A DNA stretch of 64,000 nt from an uncultured delta proteobacterium (GCA_963841435.1 CAWJCS010000005.1:928001-992000), one strand, 5' to 3'. Positions 1 to 7,934 are shown, numbered from the stretch's first letter. Program-made: numbers and translations. The notes: a model not told the origin generated them from the letters alone.

Positions 1-269
1 CCGCCCGCCCCTCCGCCCGCGGGCGCGACACCGGCCGCTCCGCCCACCGCAACGCCCGCCGCTCCGGCGAGCGAGCCCTCTTCGGCGCCTGCCGAGCCCC
101 CACCCCGTCCGCTGCTCGCGCCACCCCCCGTCCCGGCTCCGCTCACGTCTGTGCCGGCTGTGCCAGAGGCCATGTCAGCCCGATCAGCCACCGACTGCCC
201 GCCGCAAGCTGTGCTCGCCAGCAATAACAGCCAGGTATGCGCGTCGAGGGCACGCCGCGTCGCCGCCAT
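1..269 (-). CDS. Gly-rich lipoprotein, 5' part only (runs off the window edge)
   Basis: Manual translation from ATG at 269: MAATRRALDAHTWLLLLASTACGGQSV... then a Gly/Ala/Ser-rich linker; lipobox-like STAC. Not in the ORF track because it has no stop in the window. Confidence 0.75.
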   Translation of the reverse strand, partial: MAATRRALDAHTWLLLLASTACGGQSVADRADMASGTAGTDVSGAGTGGGASSGRGGGSAGAEEGSLAGAAGVAVGGAAGVAPAGGGAG

Positions 270-280
270 GGTCCGGGAGG

Positions 281-296
281 AGCAACTCTCGTGCCG
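281..296 (-). promoter_or_regulatory. sigma54-type -24/-12 promoter
   Basis: Minus strand CGGCACGAGAGTTGCT fits GGCACG-N4-TTGCW, about 12 nt upstream of the ATG at 269. Confidence 0.65.
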
Positions 297-376
297 GCCC
301 GAACCCGCCGCCCGATGCCATCGTGCAGCGGCCCCTACGAAGCGGCTGCCCAGCCGCCTGAAGATTCGCGGCCTGC

Positions 377-949
377 GTGCTGCTCGACTACATCATGGAG
401 GTCGACCATCAGGCGCAGCGCATCGAGCGGCTGGAGGGAGCCATCGACCGCGCCATCGCGGAAGCGCCTGCCGAGCTCCGCGCGATCGTCGACGCCCTCC
501 AGGCGTTGCGCGGCGTGGCCAAGGTCACCGCCGTCACGCTCGCCACCGAGCTCGGGTGCTTCAGCCGCTTCGAGCGGGCAGCCCAGGTCATGAGCTACAC
601 GGGCGTGGTCCCGTCGGAGCACTCGAGTGGACCGCGGACGCGCCGCAGCGGCATCACGAAGACCGGCAACTCACACCTGCGCCGAGTGCTGGTCGAGGCG
701 GCTTGGCATTACCGCCACCGACCGAGGATCTGCCAGCGGCAGCACGAGCTGCAAAAGGCGCTCGATCCGAAAGTCGCAGCCAGTGCCTGGCGGGCGCAGG
801 AGCGCCTGCATCGCCGCTACTGGGCGCTCGCACAGAAGAGCAAGCCGACCGGCAAGATCGTCACCGCCATCGCTCGCGAGCTCGTCGGCTTCGTCTGGGC
901 GATCGGCGTCGAGACCGAGCAACGCACGAAGCGCTCGAAGGCAGCATGA
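377..949 (+). pseudogene. IS110-family transposase, C-terminal half only (N-terminal DEDD/RuvC-like domain missing)
   Basis: LRGVAKVTAVTLATELG, YTGVVPSEHSSG (catalytic Ser motif), GITKTGNSHLRRVLVEAAW, TAIAREL; only 190 aa. Confidence 0.9.
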
Positions 950-1022
950 AACGCAAGGTGAAGTGAACGAGCCAGGGGTCGAGCCGGCAACGGTAGGAGG
1001 ATCCTCGAATACGTTGTGTGGC
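377..1022 (+). mobile_element. Truncated IS110 element: transposase fragment plus ~70 bp of downstream non-coding sequence
   Basis: The transposase fragment is followed by non-coding sequence that runs directly into an attC half-site at ~1018-1022. Ends are approximate. Confidence 0.7.
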
Positions 1023-1059
1023 AAGCGAGGGCCACGTCAGCTGCAACGCGGAGTTAGGC
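1018..1059 (-). other. Integron attC recombination site, half (R''-L'' arm only)
   Basis: Minus strand GCCTAAC-TCCGC-GTTGCAGC-TGACG. The stop codon of the upstream gene lies inside GCCTAAC. 15 bp (CGTCAGCTGCAACGC) are identical to the site at 1909-1923. The other arm is absent. Confidence 0.75.
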
Positions 1060-1527
1060 GGCCGTTCGCGGCTTGACAACGAGATCAACGACGCAGTCGA
1101 GAACCTGCAGAAGGCTGACAAGCTGGCTCAGGCTCTTGCGCGTGTTGGTAGGGTCCAGCAACCGATAAAGCTGCGGCACCGAAGTCTGAAGGCGTCGAGC
1201 AAGCTCGCGACGACTCAGCCCGGAGCTCGCCACTCGCTTGGCAGCTTCAACCGTTAGCTTGTGAGCAAGCAGTTCGGCCAGGTACTTCGGCTCCTGGTTG
1301 TACTCGAGCGCGTGGTCGATATGAACGGAACCTTCGGCGCCGGAAGCAAGTGCATACGTGACAGCTTCGTTTCCGAGTTCCTCGTCCACGTACACCTTGA
1401 CGATCCTGTCCTTGGAGGACGGGCGAGGCCTGAGCTTCGCAAACGGGAATGGGTAGGACTTGCCTGAACGCGTAACGAGCTCAAGCTGAGCCTTTCGCTG
1501 ATTCACAAAAGCGCGGTGGATCTTCAT
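1054..1527 (-). CDS. Putative antitoxin with C-terminal XRE-type HTH (cassette 2, gene 2)
   Basis: MKIHRAFVNQRK... with C-terminal GLSRRELARRLQTSVPQLYRLLD HTH; ATGA overlap with the upstream small gene. Confidence 0.75.
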   Translation of the reverse strand: MKIHRAFVNQRKAQLELVTRSGKSYPFPFAKLRPRPSSKDRIVKVYVDEELGNEAVTYALASGAEGSVHIDHALEYNQEPKYLAELLAHKLTVEAAKRVASSGLSRRELARRLQTSVPQLYRLLDPTNTRKSLSQLVSLLQVLDCVVDLVVKPRTAA

Positions 1528-1718
1528 AGCAGGCCATCCTTCCTGAGAGAGGCGATGAGCCGGATCAACTTGCCCGTCGGCTGTCCCTTCATCGGGACAG
1601 AGGCGTCGAGGTTCCACTTGAGGACGAGCTTGCCATCTCGGTACACGTGCACGTGGCGGGGGCTGTGGTCGCCGATCCAGGTGAGGAAGACGTAGTTGTC
1701 TCGCCGGATCTTGCCCAC
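1524..1718 (-). CDS. DUF4160-like small putative toxin (cassette 2, gene 1)
   Basis: 64 aa basic protein with DHSPRHVHV motif; translationally coupled to the HTH gene. Confidence 0.7.
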   Translation of the reverse strand: MGKIRRDNYVFLTWIGDHSPRHVHVYRDGKLVLKWNLDASVPMKGQPTGKLIRLIASLRKDGLL

Positions 1719-1724
1719 CCGCAG

Positions 1725-1752
1725 ATGTTACCACACGCGGTAACACTTGCAA
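1725..1752 (-). promoter_or_regulatory. sigma70-type promoter with overlapping palindromic operator
   Basis: TTGCAA-16 nt-TAACAT, 6 nt before GTG 1718; perfect inverted repeat TGTTACC-N6-GGTAACA at 1726-1745. Confidence 0.7.
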
Positions 1753-1834
1753 GGCCGGCCGCCTTCCAGGCTCCTCGGAACGCCGTGCGGATGCACTGCG
1801 CGCCCCGGGCCAGTGGCTCACCCCTGTCCGCCTA

Positions 1835-1933
1835 CTGTAACGTAGTGGCGTTCAGCTGCGGGCGCCAGAGGGAGCGGGTGAGCGAAGCGAACCAGCGACC
1901 GACCAGCCCGTCAGCTGCAACGCCTTGTTGGCC
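1835..1933 (-). other. Integron attC site (99 bp)
   Basis: Minus strand GGCCAAC-AAGGC-GTTGCAGCTGACGGGC ... GCCCGCAGCTGAACGC-CACTAC-GTT. The arms pair with two unpaired bases on one arm. It starts 5 nt after the stop codon at 1939. Confidence 0.85.
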
Positions 1934-1938
1934 AGCCG

Positions 1939-2169
1939 TCACGCAGTGCGCTTGAGGTCGCGAACCGCGATGAGATCAGCATCGCCGACTGCACGAACAT
2001 CGGTCGAAAGAAGAGTCACGAGCGCCTGGGTCCTTCCGGAAGCAAGCACGAACTCAACGTCGAGGCCGTCGGGCGCGTGAACGTCAACGATCGCGCCCAG
2101 GTCGCCGCGGCGAAGGCCGTGCTCGGGCAAGTCACGATCGAGAACGACAGTGTCGAGGAGCTTGAACAT
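1939..2169 (-). CDS. DUF4926-like protein (cassette 1, gene 2)
   Basis: MFKLLDTVVLDRDLPEHGLRRGDLGAIVDVH...VEFV...GRT; 76 aa. Confidence 0.8.
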   Translation of the reverse strand: MFKLLDTVVLDRDLPEHGLRRGDLGAIVDVHAPDGLDVEFVLASGRTQALVTLLSTDVRAVGDADLIAVRDLKRTA

Positions 2170-2171
2170 GG

Positions 2172-2504
2172 CTAGCCGGGGAAGGCGGTGACGAAGTGCG
2201 CGAAATCCTGGCGGTTGGAGACCATCCACACCGTCAGGATGGAGGCCTCACGTCCAGCAGGCCCACGCAAAGTACCACGGATCTCGAACTTCTGCCCGTG
2301 CGGGCTCGGCTGTCCGGGCAGAGCATCGCCGGAACGCGCGAGTTCGAGCAGGGCGTCGCGCAACGCTGTCCAGTGGTCCAGGGAGAAGCCAAGCCCGAGG
2401 AAGAAGACCGACTTGAACCGGCCTACCGGATGCGAGGACGACAACAGGTAGTCGCGGACCTTAGCGTCGTCGACGATCGCGCGAGAACTGTTCGGGAGAT
2501 GCAC
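2172..2504 (-). CDS. DUF6883-like protein (cassette 1, gene 1)
   Basis: LPNSSRAIVDDAKVRDYLLSSSHPVGRFKSVFF..LGF...GQKFEIRG...TVW...FVTAFP; GTG start at 2504 chosen by eye. Confidence 0.75.
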   Translation of the reverse strand: MHLPNSSRAIVDDAKVRDYLLSSSHPVGRFKSVFFLGLGFSLDHWTALRDALLELARSGDALPGQPSPHGQKFEIRGTLRGPAGREASILTVWMVSNRQDFAHFVTAFPG

Positions 2505-2563
2505 AGGTTCTGCTACTGCCGAGGGTACTGGAAAGCCGAAGCCAAACGCACCATGCCAGGTCC

Positions 2564-2660
2564 GCCCAACTTGTACTTCGCTTGGTCTGCCTAAGCCAGC
2601 CGCGGCAAGTCTTGATAAGCCGCTACCGCGACAGGAACCAGGTGAATTCGCGTTATCAAG
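2564..2660 (-). other. Candidate attI / first-cassette junction
   Basis: GTTGGGC (GTTRRRY) at 2570-2564, nearly complementary to the GGCCAAC that closes cassette 1; upstream TTAGGC and an 8-bp inverted repeat CTTGATAA/TTATCAAG. Confidence 0.4.
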
Positions 2661-2693
2661 CGGCGCTAGCTGGACCTTGCAAGAAGCCACGCC

Positions 2694-3098
2694 TCAGCAC
2701 CCGCGGGACCTCCGCCGGATCTCCTCTGCCAGCCAGGCAACCACGCCGCCAACATCCCCCATGACCTCCCGCGCCTCCACCCGCAGCACCCGATACCCCA
2801 ACCGCCCAAGCTCCCTGTCCTTCCGCGCATCCGCCCCGCGCCGCCCGACGTGCGACGCCCCATCAACCTCCACGACGAGCCGCACCGACGGTGCCGCGAA
2901 ATCCACGATGCGCCCGCCGATGACGTACTGCCGCCGGAAGGCAACCCCGAGCTTGCTGCTCACCAGCCGCGACCAGAGCAGCCGCTCGGATGCCGTGCCA
3001 GACGCGCGCATCCCGGCAGCACGCGCCTGAAGCAGCTCGCGCCTCCGCTGAAGCAAGCGTTCGTGGGAGGCGGAAGTTGGGTGAAGGCGATGCGGCAT
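2694..3098 (-). CDS. DUF559 / Vsr-like endonuclease
   Basis: TASERLLWSRL...FRRQYVIGGRIVDFAAPSVRLVVEVDGASH...DARKDREL...GYRVLR. Confidence 0.9.
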   Translation of the reverse strand: MPHRLHPTSASHERLLQRRRELLQARAAGMRASGTASERLLWSRLVSSKLGVAFRRQYVIGGRIVDFAAPSVRLVVEVDGASHVGRRGADARKDRELGRLGYRVLRVEAREVMGDVGGVVAWLAEEIRRRSRGC

Positions 3099-3107
3099 GG
3101 TGGTCTC

Positions 3108-3249
3108 CTCGCGCCCGGGGTGGGGCCGGGCGCAGCCCCCCTGGCGCAAGCGCCGTGACGCGCGCAAGGCGTCGCGTTTGCCGCACAGCACGGAGCGCGG
3201 CGCGGCGGTTGCGCCTCCCCGCGAAGCCCGGCCCCAGCCCGGGCGCGAG
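3108..3249. repeat. 24-bp inverted repeat (1 mismatch) bracketing a 142-bp element
   Basis: CTCGCGCCCGGGGTGGGGCCGGGC (3108-3131) versus GCCCGGCCCCAGCCCGGGCGCGAG (3226-3249). Confidence 0.8.
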
Positions 3250-3348
3250 CGTCACCACGCCGCCCATCGCCCGCACACGACGTGCGACCCTGCCAACGTC
3301 CCGCGACGCCCGTCACCGACACCCTGCGCCACCCCGTGCACCAGCGTG

Positions 3349-3405
3349 CGTCTCCTCCGCGGCCGCCCGCAGCCCGAAGGGCGAGGACGGACGCTTGGAG
3401 GAGAC
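3349..3405. repeat. Dispersed palindromic repeat, copy 1
   Basis: GTCTCCTCC...GCCCGAAGGGC...GGAGGAGAC hairpin; similar copy at 7882-7934. Confidence 0.7.
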
Positions 3406-3491
3406 CGCAGGCGCGCAGGCGGCCACGCCGCCCGTCACCGTTCAGTCACCGCACGCAGAAGCCGCCGAGCACCTGCGAGTGGAGGCAGCAG

Positions 3492-3562
3492 TTCCGGCGC
3501 ATGGATTCGAACCACGATTCAGGGATTCAAAGTCCCTTGTCCTGCCCTTAGACGACGCCGGA
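3492..3562 (-). tRNA. tRNA-Gln(TTG), CCA not encoded
   Basis: Acceptor stem TCCGGCG/CGCCGGA, anticodon arm AGGGA-CTTTGAA-TCCCT, T arm CGTGG-TTCGAAT-CCATG. Confidence 0.95.
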
Positions 3563-3675
3563 ATGAGGGGGGTCGCGGGAACTTGTCGGGAGATGGGGCG
3601 GGCGTCAACCGCCAGGCGTTGGGCGGTGGCACGCCAGGCGGTGCAGGCCTGCTCGAAGCGCGGTATCCTTGCCCG

Positions 3676-3897
3676 ATGCGCGCGCTCGTGAAGAACGGTC
3701 GCCTTACCCTCGACGAGCCCACCGATTTGCCCGACGGCACCCTCGTCCCACTCGAAGTAGCCGGTGACTGGGACGACCTGGACGATCAAGAACGCGCCGC
3801 TCTGCACGACGCGTTGCGCGAAGGCTTCGAGGAAGCGAAAGCAGGGCACACCATCGACGCCGAGCAGTGGGCCGCCGAGCTGCGCTCGCGCCTGTGA
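3676..3897 (+). CDS. Small acidic antitoxin-like protein (no adjacent toxin)
   Basis: MRALVKNGRLTLDEPTDLPDGT...ALREGFEEAKAGHTIDAE; TATCCT -10-like box 6 nt before the ATG. Confidence 0.6.
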   Translation: MRALVKNGRLTLDEPTDLPDGTLVPLEVAGDWDDLDDQERAALHDALREGFEEAKAGHTIDAEQWAAELRSRL

Positions 3898-4025
3898 ACA
3901 CGGACCCAAGCTGTAGCGCTCGGCACGCAAGCAGGCGGCCCACGCCGCCCGGTATCGTTCACTCACGGCGCTAGGACCAAACGGTCGAACGCACGAGCGA
4001 GCGCCGGCTCAGCCCCTGACGGGTT

Positions 4026-5408
4026 TCAGGGCAGCGCCTGCTTCTGGAACATGTCCCAGGCCGTATCGACGATCTTGGAGAGTCCGTAGCTGCCGCAGTG
4101 GTTGGAGCTCGCTGCGGTGCACAGGGAAACCTGCGTGCCGCCATCGCAGGACGTGTAGTCCTGGCAGATGGAGTTGCCGGGGTCCTTTGTCGGCGACCCC
4201 GTGCATTTGTCGAAGTTGGCCCAGGTCTGGAAGTTGACCTCTGCGCTCGGGAAGTTTAACGCCGCGCAGCTACCTCCCGGCGGGCAGTTCGCGGCGACGA
4301 GCGTCTTGCCGCCGTTGTAGGGCACGATGGACATGTCCTGGCCCTCGTCGAATGCCATCACCGAGATCGGTCGCGGCAACTGGCAGGTGCAGGCGGTGTT
4401 GTTCGTGGGGGTCAGCGACGCGGCATTCGCCGGTTCCTCACCGGTGATGCAGCGGAAGTCTACGGGCGCCACCGCCGCGATCACGTCCGCGGCATTGCAC
4501 GCGAGTATGTAGGCCATGCCGCCGCCGTTGGAGCAGCCGCTCGCGTAGACGCGTTTGGGGTCGATGCACGTGTTGCCTGCGAGCCACTGGATCATGTCCC
4601 GCGTGAACTTCACGTCATCCACCATCTGCTGCTGGGAGTTGCTGCAGCAGTAGCCGACGTTCCAGGAATTGTCGCTCGGCCCCGAGTCGGGAAACACCGC
4701 GATGCAGCCGACGCTGTCGCACTTCTTGTCCCAGCCCGACGCCTGCTTCTGGCTCTGGCCCGTCCCGCCGAGCGGGTGAAAATCGAAAATCACGGGCAGC
4801 GGGGAGTCCCCGGCGTAGCCAGTCGGAAGGTGGACTATGAATTTGCGGGGCATGCCGTCTGAGGTGATGGTCTGGTTCGAGTCGCCTGCCTTCAACGTGC
4901 CGGGACAGGTCGCGCCGCTCTCGCCTGAAGAGCCGCCCGTGCCAGCAGATCCGCTGCCACCGCCCTGGCCGGCCCCGGCGCCGGCCGTGCCACCGGCGCC
5001 CGCGAGACCGGCACCGCCAGCCGTCATGCCGGCCGTTCCACCGCCCATGGTGGTGCCGCCGAGTCCGCCGCTTACGACCGTGCCACCTTGACCGCCGCCG
5101 CCCGGACCCTGCCCCGCTGTCGCTCCCTGTCCACCGACCGCCGCACTCGAGCCGCCCACGTCGCCGCTGCCAGCTGCTGCGGTACCGCCGCTGGCCGCGC
5201 CACCACCGACGCCGGCGTTTCCCGGCAACGTGCCCGAGCTTCCCGCGGCGAAGGTTCCCGCCGACGGCTGCCCCGTGCCGCCGGTCGTTCCACCGGATCC
5301 GGAGCGCGAGCCGCCCGCACCACCGCCCGGGGTCGGGCTCGTTCCGCAGGCCCCCGCGGCGGCGACTGCCAAAAAGACGTTGATCGAACGAACGCTGCGA
5401 AGGGTCAT
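4026..5408 (-). CDS. Lipoprotein esterase (LpqC / PHB depolymerase / CE1-like) with Gly-rich linker
   Basis: Lipobox AGAC, long Gly linker, PVIFDFHPLGG, IDPKRVYASGCSNGGGMA nucleophile motif. Confidence 0.85.
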   Translation of the reverse strand: MTLRSVRSINVFLAVAAAGACGTSPTPGGGAGGSRSGSGGTTGGTGQPSAGTFAAGSSGTLPGNAGVGGGAASGGTAAAGSGDVGGSSAAVGGQGATAGQGPGGGGQGGTVVSGGLGGTTMGGGTAGMTAGGAGLAGAGGTAGAGAGQGGGSGSAGTGGSSGESGATCPGTLKAGDSNQTITSDGMPRKFIVHLPTGYAGDSPLPVIFDFHPLGGTGQSQKQASGWDKKCDSVGCIAVFPDSGPSDNSWNVGYCCSNSQQQMVDDVKFTRDMIQWLAGNTCIDPKRVYASGCSNGGGMAYILACNAADVIAAVAPVDFRCITGEEPANAASLTPTNNTACTCQLPRPISVMAFDEGQDMSIVPYNGGKTLVAANCPPGGSCAALNFPSAEVNFQTWANFDKCTGSPTKDPGNSICQDYTSCDGGTQVSLCTAASSNHCGSYGLSKIVDTAWDMFQKQALP

Positions 5409-7881: not shown

Positions 7882-7934
7882 CGTCTCCCCCGCGGCCGCC
7901 CGCAGCCCCGCGAGGACGGACGCGTGGAGGCAGC
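7882..7934. repeat. Dispersed palindromic repeat, copy 2 (degenerate)
   Basis: CGTCTCCCCCGCGGCCGCCCGCAGCCC..GCGAGGACGGACGCGTGGAGG matches 3349-3405. Confidence 0.7.

Follow-up and report, generated by a model that had tools for sequence, protein, structure and literature searches.

The window considered here is a 64,000-nucleotide stretch of an uncultured bacterium, equivalent to positions 928001-992000 of contig C5 in a metagenome-assembled genome (MAG) of 7.78 Mb, referred to as G000. This source genome belongs to the Polyangiaceae, in keeping with the myxobacterium-like origin suggested by a preliminary description of the sequence. On the minus strand, positions 1023-2570 hold what are very probably two genuine integron cassettes situated outside the integron, as a cluster of attC recombination sites without intI (CALIN), with the origin proposed below. 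Each cassette contains a pair of small genes; the first ends in an intact attC site and the second in the 5′ half of another. The locus is probably a CALIN, of a kind already well described; CALINs, toxin-antitoxin (TA) cassettes and degraded integrases are all known. The preliminary description had read it as a remnant array lacking an integrase. The two cassettes, a covariance model (CM) match and the bulged bases of the attC site bear this out, whereas the genome does contain an intI and the cluster extends to the left of the window. In what follows, positions without a prefix are those of the window, C1, C3 and C5 are contigs of G000, and the prefixes G and L denote genomes and individual loci.

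The attC site between the two gene pairs

The preliminary description had placed a full attC site at 1933-1835, and both of its outer boxes lie as claimed, R″ (GGCCAAC) at 1933-1927 and R′ (GTTACAG) at 1841-1835. The site was examined with R1, a home-made CM trained on eight short (74-75 nt) attC sites of the intI-linked array, from which the window site and all sites of the long type were excluded. Across the 64 kb, R1 gave one significant match, 1837-1933 on the minus strand (32.4 bits, E 7e-7), followed by a match with an E value of 0.6. With filters off over 900-3600, the same site was again the sole significant match, at 29.4 bits. An nhmmer comparison of the window attC with the attCs of the array gave 123.7 bits.

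The training alignment of R1 contains 25 base pairs with 91% of cells paired, and 8 of these pairs change on both sides. Its covariation score was reached by none of 500 shuffles, and sliding the partner by one to three columns left a pairing of 24-42%. A larger, model-fitted alignment was made of 32 CM matches from G000, two relatives and one Sandaracinaceae MAG, with three reverse-strand matches and one partial match included. In this set, two-sided changes affect 15 of the 25 pairs, the share of paired cells is 89.7%, and the covariation score was likewise reached by 0/500 shuffles.

The plus strand of 1835-1933 is the bottom strand of the site, the open reading frames (ORFs) being on the minus strand. 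Folded as DNA, it forms a stem of the L boxes from which the single bases C1918 and T1911 bulge. Both bulges are on the 3′ arm, opposite the AAC triplet and 6 pairs apart, and, counted from the R″ end, they occupy positions 16 and 23, the canonical places for extrahelical bases. According to Nivina et al. (PMC5027507), the bulges of attC sites stand on that arm of the bottom strand which faces the AAC triplet; the base at position 16 is usually G, a T is conserved at 23/24 and the 6-bp stem between them is required.

Several results weigh against this identification. A whole-genome run of R1, in which just 150 of the 9391 candidates were scored, listed 20 matches and not the window site, and a search of window positions 1-5000 against Rfam 15 at E values up to 10 gave the tRNA, three chance-level rows and no attC family. 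The stability of the fold is modest, with a z of -2.08 on the plus strand (5 of 200 shuffles as good) and -1.33 on the minus strand (27 of 200), and the short attCs of the array fold better (z -4.4, 0 of 200). The fit to the R-box consensus RYYYAAC/GTTRRRY is imperfect, as GGCCAAC agrees at three of the four degenerate positions and GTTACAG at two of the four; AAC and GTT are intact, and the two boxes pair through them alone. The box of the half site, GCCTAAC, fits the R″ consensus fully. R1 does not see this half site, either in the 64-kb run or in the filters-off run over 900-3600, and it is therefore identified by sequence likeness alone. Neither an attC nor an attI was found upstream of cassette 1 by the latter run, which leaves the upstream junction of this cassette undefined.

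The last of these points is the base at position 16, which is C instead of the usual G, making the window attC a T-N6-C site. A C at this bottom-strand position (G on the top strand) is present in 28/28 forward full-length attCs from G000, G006, G004 and one Sandaracinaceae MAG, and is therefore a trait of the lineage and not a defect of the window site. In the work of Larouche and Roy (PMC3053210), excision of T-N6-C sites by IntI1 equalled that of T-N6-G sites, and IntI2*, IntI3 and SonIntIA excised the T-N6-C sites better. Taken together, 1835-1933 on the minus strand is a bona fide attC site, and its recombination by IntI is predicted from the sequence.

The preliminary description also drew attention to a 15-bp motif common to the full and the half site. 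The 14/15-nt motif is at 1035-1048 and 1909-1922, and these are the sole two exact copies of the 14-mer in the 7.78-Mb genome. When one mismatch is allowed, the genome contains 20 matches compared with 16 for a reversed-pattern control, which is chance level, so that little can be concluded from the short motif by itself. Within the window, at up to two mismatches, there are 6 matches vs 1.30 expected, a number reached by 1 of 100 shuffles.

The integron of the source genome

The main integron array of G000 covers approximately 30 kb with about 18 attCs and lies around 0.9 Mb from the window on the same contig. It was found by nhmmer together with a pattern scan, as dense palindromes of a single orientation downstream of intI. 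There are 16 forward CM matches directly downstream of the integrase gene (C1:1113-7056 and C5:1830085-1845314, across a contig break), and two more sites came from other searches. The intI gene is co-oriented with its array and upstream of it, as in the relative G051. The motif shared by the two sites of the window belongs to an attC family concentrated beside intI, and is not the generic intergenic repeat that the preliminary description had considered as a refutation.

The intI gene is located at C1:7941-8717 and matches TIGR02249 in two pieces that sum to 311.3 bits (cut-off 265), model positions 151-216 being absent. Alignment with two intact IntIs from the genus, to which it is 53% and 65% identical, reveals an in-frame gap of 67 residues, and both the GKG.KDR hairpin and the insert specific to IntI fall in this gap. 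The gene is a remnant and not an intact member of the family, and judging by its sequence it is probably dead. No other tyrosine recombinase in G000 reaches the IntI cut-off. The earlier statement that no tyrosine recombinase is visible in the window was correct, as 0/13 of the PF00589 matches of the genome are on contig C5. The description of the locus as integrase-less therefore holds for the window and for this contig, but not for the genome, where the deleted intI stands beside the main array.

All ORFs of the array were scanned, a filter based on GC content at third codon positions (GC3) having been dropped as it missed most cassette genes. The array contains PIN, Unstab_antitox, MarR, methyltransferase and PhyH genes, a reverse transcriptase, membrane proteins and a second DUF6883/DUF4926 pair, as well as insertion sequence (IS) elements of the IS110, IS630 and IS4 types. 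The reverse-transcriptase gene (C1:4914-6506, 530 aa; RVT_1, E 6.2e-10) is inside the array on the opposite strand to the cassettes.

Within the genus, an IntI above the cut-off is present in 18 of 41 sampled genomes, G000 included, and intact IntIs occur among the relatives. In G051, which has an intact IntI, intI is followed by four attCs on the same strand, and there are small attC clusters elsewhere in the genome. A non-exhaustive literature search found no paper on the integrons of this Polyangiaceae genus. According to one paper (PMC13616975), the genomes of cultured Myxococcaceae yielded no cassettes.

Boundaries and gene content of the two cassettes

The features of the locus and of its immediate surroundings are collected in the table. 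The R′-type box GTTGGGC is on the minus strand at the position claimed for it in the preliminary description, and the crossover of cassette 1 would fall between G2570 and T2569. The box has the extended form GTTRGSCRGAC in common with the cassette starts of the intI-linked array, a likeness which makes it a likely candidate for a recombination junction. The first cassette boundary is ambiguous because there is a second R′-like box, CTTAGGC, 25 nt upstream. The start of the 25-nt ‘ghost cassette’ delimited by the two boxes is identical at 13 of 14 nt to the cassette start that follows the attC at C1:3866-3965 (GTTGGGCAGACCAAG), and it may be the residue left by internal deletion of a cassette.

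Features of the two-cassette locus and its surroundings, in window coordinates
Feature	Position	Strand	Basis or remark
IS110/IS1111-family internal fragment	340..1025	+	PF02371; left limit ~340 approximate
5′-half attC of cassette 2 (R″, spacer, L″, start of variable loop)	1023..1059	-	
Cassette 2 gene 2, XRE-HTH protein, 157 aa	1054..1527	-	HTH matches below cut-off, and model
Cassette 2 gene 1, DUF4160-like, 64 aa	1524..1718	-	Sub-threshold Pfam match and ESM Atlas
Promoter/operator-like stretch of cassette 2	1725..1752	-	Conserved in other MAG loci
Intact attC of cassette 1, 99 nt	1835..1933	-	CM, fold, nhmmer
Cassette 1 gene 2, DUF4926, 76 aa	1939..2169	-	Pfam PF16277
Cassette 1 gene 1, DUF6883, 110 aa	2172..2504	-	Pfam PF21814
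GTTGGGC R′-type core box	2564..2570	-	Read in sequence; likely 5′ boundary of cassette 1
Candidate 25-nt ‘ghost cassette’	2571..2595	-	CTTAGGC (2595-2589), GCAGACCAAG, to ...GTACAAG
DUF559 gene (Vsr-like endonuclease fold)	2694..3098	-	PF04480, E 7.8e-25
~200-nt repeated module, directly 3′ of tRNA-Gln; 74-nt hairpin at 3355-3428	3285..3490	-	
tRNA-Gln (anticodon TTG)	3491..3562	-	ARAGORN; Rfam RF00005, 58.7 bits

Cassette 1 is the better defined of the two by protein family. Its products match DUF6883 (E 8.6e-29) and DUF4926 (E 5.5e-18), both above the Pfam cut-off. There are 588 homologues of the former, nearly all of 110 aa, and 2100 of the latter, nearly all of 76 aa. The AlphaFold model of the DUF6883 protein has a mean predicted local distance difference test (pLDDT) score of 92.8. 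Among solved structures, it is closest to a BECR-fold toxin domain with tRNase activity, CdiA-CT of K. pneumoniae 342 (6cp9_A; template modelling (TM) score 0.72, E 2.7e-5), for which a topology of helices followed by four strands is tabulated (PMC9086364). DUF6883 has been placed in BECR-Tox3, with DUF4926 as its conserved downstream partner (bioRxiv 10.64898/2026.08.28.747851). Based on the model, the DUF6883 protein is a toxin candidate with the BECR RNase fold, and by analogy the DUF4926 protein is an antitoxin or immunity candidate.

The pairing of DUF6883 with DUF4926 was seen in three loci. A paralogous pair stands between two attCs of the main array (L018:4918-4132). A copy in the relative G004 (C131; L036), of 75% nt identity, is followed by an attC of approximately 250 nt, the L box of which is changed on both sides (TGTTGAAG / CTTAACA) with the bulged G kept. 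Elsewhere in G000, at C5:11498-11632, there is a 135-nt relic with 98% identity to window 1921-2055. It consists of the DUF4926 gene's 3′ half and the first bases of the attC, and precedes an unrelated small gene.

The genes of cassette 2 overlap by 4 bp, the start of gene 2 and the stop of gene 1 sharing ATGA. For the 64-aa product of gene 1, 25 of the 30 nearest clusters in the ESM Atlas are DUF4160, with a best score of 0.96. The 157-aa product of gene 2 consists of an N-terminal beta domain and a C-terminal XRE-type helix-turn-helix (HTH), and its 1983 homologues have an almost constant length of 157 aa. In its structural model (pLDDT 87.5), the C-terminal half resembles 2o38 and the HTHs of HipB and HicB. 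The N-terminal half resembles DUF971/GBBH N-domains at E values of 1e-3 to 5e-2, with NE0471 (2auw) only at rank 41. A profile search of the family against solved structures matched the HTH part only (2o38, E 0.0052). The Atlas offers DUF2442 for this protein at 0.85, which is a lead only, and Pfam gave no DUF2442 match in it. DUF4160 and DUF2442 constitute the dhiTA toxin-antitoxin pair of Dickeya dadantii 3937, as described in PMC8198452 and PMC12065111. By analogy, the 64-aa DUF4160-like protein is a toxin candidate, while the model of the 157-aa protein makes it an antitoxin or repressor candidate.

Upstream of this pair are a TTGCAA hexamer, the inverted repeat GTTACC-N6-GGTAAC and an overlapping TAACAT (1752-1725). 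The arrangement is kept in 10/10 loci of other MAGs for which upstream sequence is available, two of them with variant letters. A consensus promoter and terminator scan of 900-3600 gave 0 sites, with no T-run terminator. From the conserved sequence, cassette 2 appears to be expressed from a promoter/operator of its own.

The two-gene module of cassette 2 is present in 12 MAG loci, assigned to Myxococcales, Polyangiales, Sandaracinaceae, Binatia and one member of the Gammaproteobacteria. Downstream sequence is available for 11 of these, and TAAC stands directly at the stop codon in 5. In the window, the TAA at 1056-1054 of the 157-aa ORF likewise falls inside the GCCTAAC box (1059-1053), as previously noted. 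By eye, a full attC-like site follows the module in L043 and L049, and a truncated one in L039. R1 confirmed the upstream attC of L043 only (a Sandaracinaceae MAG), at 27.3 bits (E 1.9e-5). Both gene pairs therefore recur as attC-bounded units, the first in the main array and at G004:C131, the second in L043, L049 and L039, in agreement with the view that each cassette moves as a unit.

All four cassette proteins are at the modal length of large, highly conserved families, with homologues counted for three of them; NCBIfam gave no match for any of the four. Some of the evidence on gene content points the other way. The Pfam match of the 64-aa protein to PF13711 (DUF4160) is weak (E 0.0037; 17.9 bits, under the cut-off of 23), and the HTH_37, HTH_26 and HTH_31 matches of the 157-aa protein are all below the cut-off. 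In 5 of the 11 loci nothing attC-like follows the DUF4160/HTH module, which therefore also travels outside cassettes. Both cassettes would carry modules of the toxin-antitoxin type, and their status in this respect is that of candidates. Such modules probably persist because TA loss is costly or because they contribute to phage defence, and the idea that they were kept because they are addictive may be correct.

The half site at the end of cassette 2 was recognized by comparison with a relative, in which an intact attC (L034:3976-3908; CM 40.6 bits) agrees in its 5′ half with window 1059-1023 at 32 of 37 nt. It begins at 1059, as claimed in the preliminary description; the attC-derived sequence ends at about 1023-1026 and not at 1018, as IS sequence runs leftward from 1025. 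The two join at approximately 1025 through a CTT microhomology.

The IS sequence at 477-1025 is 99.6% identical to two IS copies inside the main array. The fragment keeps the C-terminal part of the transposase (ORF 377-949; PF02371, E 2.6e-21), and both IS ends are gone. The array copies run 212 nt further to the true end, which has ATGGAACGACC; this sequence forms sub-terminal repeats at both ends of the IS1111-like element. In 2/2 array copies the IS end falls in an attC, which it meets at the R′ end in one case (GTTG^ATATGG...) and in the loop in the other. The half attC was considered as an IS insertion junction and this was rejected, since the IS sequence there is internal with both ends missing; for the same reason the junction is a deletion scar. 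Members of the IS1111 family that target attC sites (the IS1111-attC group, with ISKpn4 and ISPst6) are described in PMC11187229, and the behaviour of the array IS resembles theirs. The array copies are at C5:1837113-1837973 and 1838894-1839754, the third copy is that of the window, and all three are deleted derivatives. Pieces of PF02371 and PF01548 are present in the copies, and G000 yielded no intact example of the element.

To the left of the window, the cluster continues with a 328-aa lipoprotein gene, a second 74-nt hairpin, a 176-aa membrane-protein gene and a decayed attC (C5:926527-926471). The claim that the array is made only of TA-like pairs is accordingly valid for 1018-2570 and fails beyond it, where the membrane-protein gene constitutes another cassette. 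Counting the sites of the locus gives one intact attC, one 5′ half and, 3.3 kb on, the decayed one, with no tyrosine recombinase on the contig. By a strict count of intact sites, it would be a single attC site lacking an integrase (SALIN).

On the other side, the DUF559 gene was examined as a possible first cassette and rejected, as no attC follows it and 0/4 homologous loci in relatives have one. R1 with filters off found no attC in the interval between this gene and cassette 1. A hairpin after the gene (~2604-2680) was likewise rejected as an attC, being without the R/L layout and having no CM match. The tRNA-Gln gene is where the preliminary description had put it; the association of the array with it looks incidental, given the DUF559 gene and about 900 nt in between and the lack of attCs at the DUF559 loci of relatives. 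Upstream of the DUF559 gene is a near-perfect inverted repeat (3086-3271; arms 3108-3131 and 3226-3249, 96% complementary), with similar ones in relatives. Beyond the tRNA, a small ORF on the plus strand (3687-3897) has many copies in relatives and may be another multi-copy small module.

Origin of the locus and comparison with known systems

In the proposed mechanism, an IntI of the type common in this Polyangiaceae genus would have moved the cassettes through their folded bottom-strand attCs, and these would have landed, or been left, at a non-att place. The downstream attC lost its 3′ half, and its remainder is fused to internal sequence of the attC-targeting IS1111-like element. The only intI of the genome lost 67 residues in frame and, presumably, its activity, because of which the cassettes would now be frozen. 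About half of the confidence in the origin goes to integrase-mediated insertion at a non-att site, and the rest to a displaced piece of the main array. Insertion by IntI1 outside att sites has been shown experimentally (10.1101/2022.09.11.507474), and the junctions at the copies of the hairpin elsewhere on C5, described below, fit such events. No empty-site allele was found in the relatives, because synteny is not kept in them.

The displacement of a piece of the main array, by IS-mediated or homologous rearrangement and not by an integrase, is a serious possibility, held at somewhat less than even. Directly beside the truncated attC is an IS fragment with near-identical counterparts in the array, the orientation of the IS relative to the attCs does not differ between the two places, and the ghost upstream is suggestive of a further cassette. 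In addition, IS-mediated rearrangement is proposed as a source of CALINs in 10.1101/2022.09.11.507474. However, the IS piece in the window is internal, with a deletion scar instead of the product of a transposition or crossover, and it retains a middle portion of the transposase gene which is missing from the array copies. Single cassettes also occur elsewhere in G000 with no IS beside them (e.g., C5:848686), and the junction of hairpin and cassette at C5:927121 is precise.

Stray cassettes of G000 are at C5:848686, C5:926471, C5:241774, C5:11498 and C3:1546395, and the relative G051, with its intact IntI, has some as well. The first, comprising a gene for a 184-aa membrane protein and an attC (C5:848686-848760), has beside it four CRISPR-like direct repeats of ~36 nt (C5:849400-849700). 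Five copies or part-copies of the hairpin module are present in G000, all directly 3′ of genes (window 3355-3428; C5:925327-925426; C5:927121-927194; C5:935882-935930, which is window 7882-7930; and C5:240956-241152). Four of the five are within 11 kb around the two-cassette locus. At C5:927121-927194, the 3′ stem of the hairpin is replaced exactly by the start of a cassette (...GGAG followed by TTGGGCGGAC). The copy at C5:240956-241152 is 84% identical, and after it come a MazEF-like pair and a truncated attC (to C5:241816).

From these two places, C5:927121-927194 and C5:240956-241816, a further reading may tentatively be drawn, although it is doubtful at present. Cassettes of this lineage may escape the integron into terminator- or REP-like (repetitive extragenic palindromic) hairpins at the 3′ ends of genes, as natural events of the ‘attG’ type. 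If true, together with the uniform C at position 16 and the co-orientation of intI with its array, this would indicate a distinct integron clade whose off-site insertions can be read from genomes.

It is improbable that the locus is instead a tRNA-Gln-associated island made by another site-specific recombinase, with the 74-nt repeats at 3355-3428 and C5:927121-927194 as attL and attR. These direct repeats are 98.6% identical and bracket ~4.2 kb starting next to tRNA-Gln, and synteny is lost in relatives, in which the flanking genes and tRNA-Gln are on different contigs. The repeat, however, contains no tRNA sequence. Its hairpin recurs in G000, where each of the five copies directly follows a gene, and the family extends to other members of the genus, having been found in 10 of the 40 further genomes, among them the unpublished G045. 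There is no integrase on the contig, and an island would leave the attC structure and the attC family near intI unexplained.

Even less credit can be given to the proposal that the attC is a terminator or regulatory hairpin of TA modules, unrelated to integrons. Its place directly after a stop codon is that of a terminator, its fold is only weakly better than shuffled sequence, and the DUF4160/HTH module can occur without it. Against this, the same family of sites follows unrelated genes of the array by intI (PIN, MarR, methyltransferase, membrane proteins and PhyH), it has both R and L boxes, its bulges at 16 and 23 are conserved, compensatory changes occur in it, and the scan found no T-run terminator. 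A generic intergenic repeat, such as a REP or a miniature inverted-repeat transposable element (MITE), sharing the 15-mer by chance is the least probable of all, for although the one-mismatch counts are at the level of the control, the exact copies are confined to the two sites, the extended homologues cluster by intI and the structure covaries.

The locus does not overturn current understanding. It indicates that soil Polyangiaceae contain sedentary integrons in decay, accompanied by TA cassettes, IS elements that seek out attCs, and stray cassettes. The poorly characterized DUF6883/DUF4926 and DUF4160/HTH pairs gain a mobile-cassette context, which is a reason to test them as TA or anti-phage systems. 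The uniform T-N6-C bulges and the precise junction of hairpin and cassette add, in a small way that can be checked, to the knowledge of attC recognition and of insertion outside integrons.

The CALIN and SALIN categories were defined for IntegronFinder (10.1101/030866; 10.1101/2022.02.28.482270), and CALINs of two cassettes are given as the commonest class, 1362 of 2961 (10.1101/2022.09.11.507474; 10.1101/2022.02.28.482270). Like these, the present locus is a small cluster of attC-bounded cassettes far from intI, with an integron elsewhere in the same genome. It differs in that just one of its attCs is intact, so that the default threshold of two attCs might report a single site, and in that the intI is a deletion derivative.

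The ″ arm of the attC sites described here has a longer L″ stem and a shorter spacer, with 6 paired and 2 unpaired positions, or 5 and 3. In canonical sites, this arm is split into 3 paired and 5 unpaired positions. Otherwise, the R″-L″...L′-R′ layout, the AAC/GTT core, the unpaired spacer and the variable loop are the same as in the canonical sites aadA7 and VCR, as presented in PMC5027507 and PMC3053210. Also in common are the bulges at 16 and 23 with the 6-bp stem, opposite AAC, the length here being 74-167 nt. Canonical sites usually have G at position 16, unlike the C of this lineage.

With regard to the IS, the array element is similar to the IS1111-attC group as described in PMC11187229, being an IS110/IS1111 element with sub-terminal inverted repeats inserted in attCs. 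Unlike that group, the window holds an internal fragment only, with a deletion scar as its attC junction. The pair in cassette 2 is similar to dhiTA (PMC8198452; PMC12065111) in having a small DUF4160-type protein followed by an overlapping partner gene, the overlap being given as -3 bp for dhiTA and comprising the 4-bp ATGA here. Unlike that of dhiTA, the partner is a 157-aa protein with a C-terminal XRE HTH, and its N-terminal domain is only tentatively DUF2442-like.

The gene families in the present cassettes are DUF6883/DUF4926 and DUF4160/HTH. The classical families include RelE, ParE, HigB and Doc. Similar to the TA cassettes of sedentary chromosomal integrons, such as the Vibrio superintegron (PMC13108822), the modules here are of the two-gene addiction type, with an apparent promoter of their own, and would belong to or stem from a large chromosomal array. 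They differ from the Vibrio cassettes in their gene families, in their myxobacterial host and in their location outside the array.

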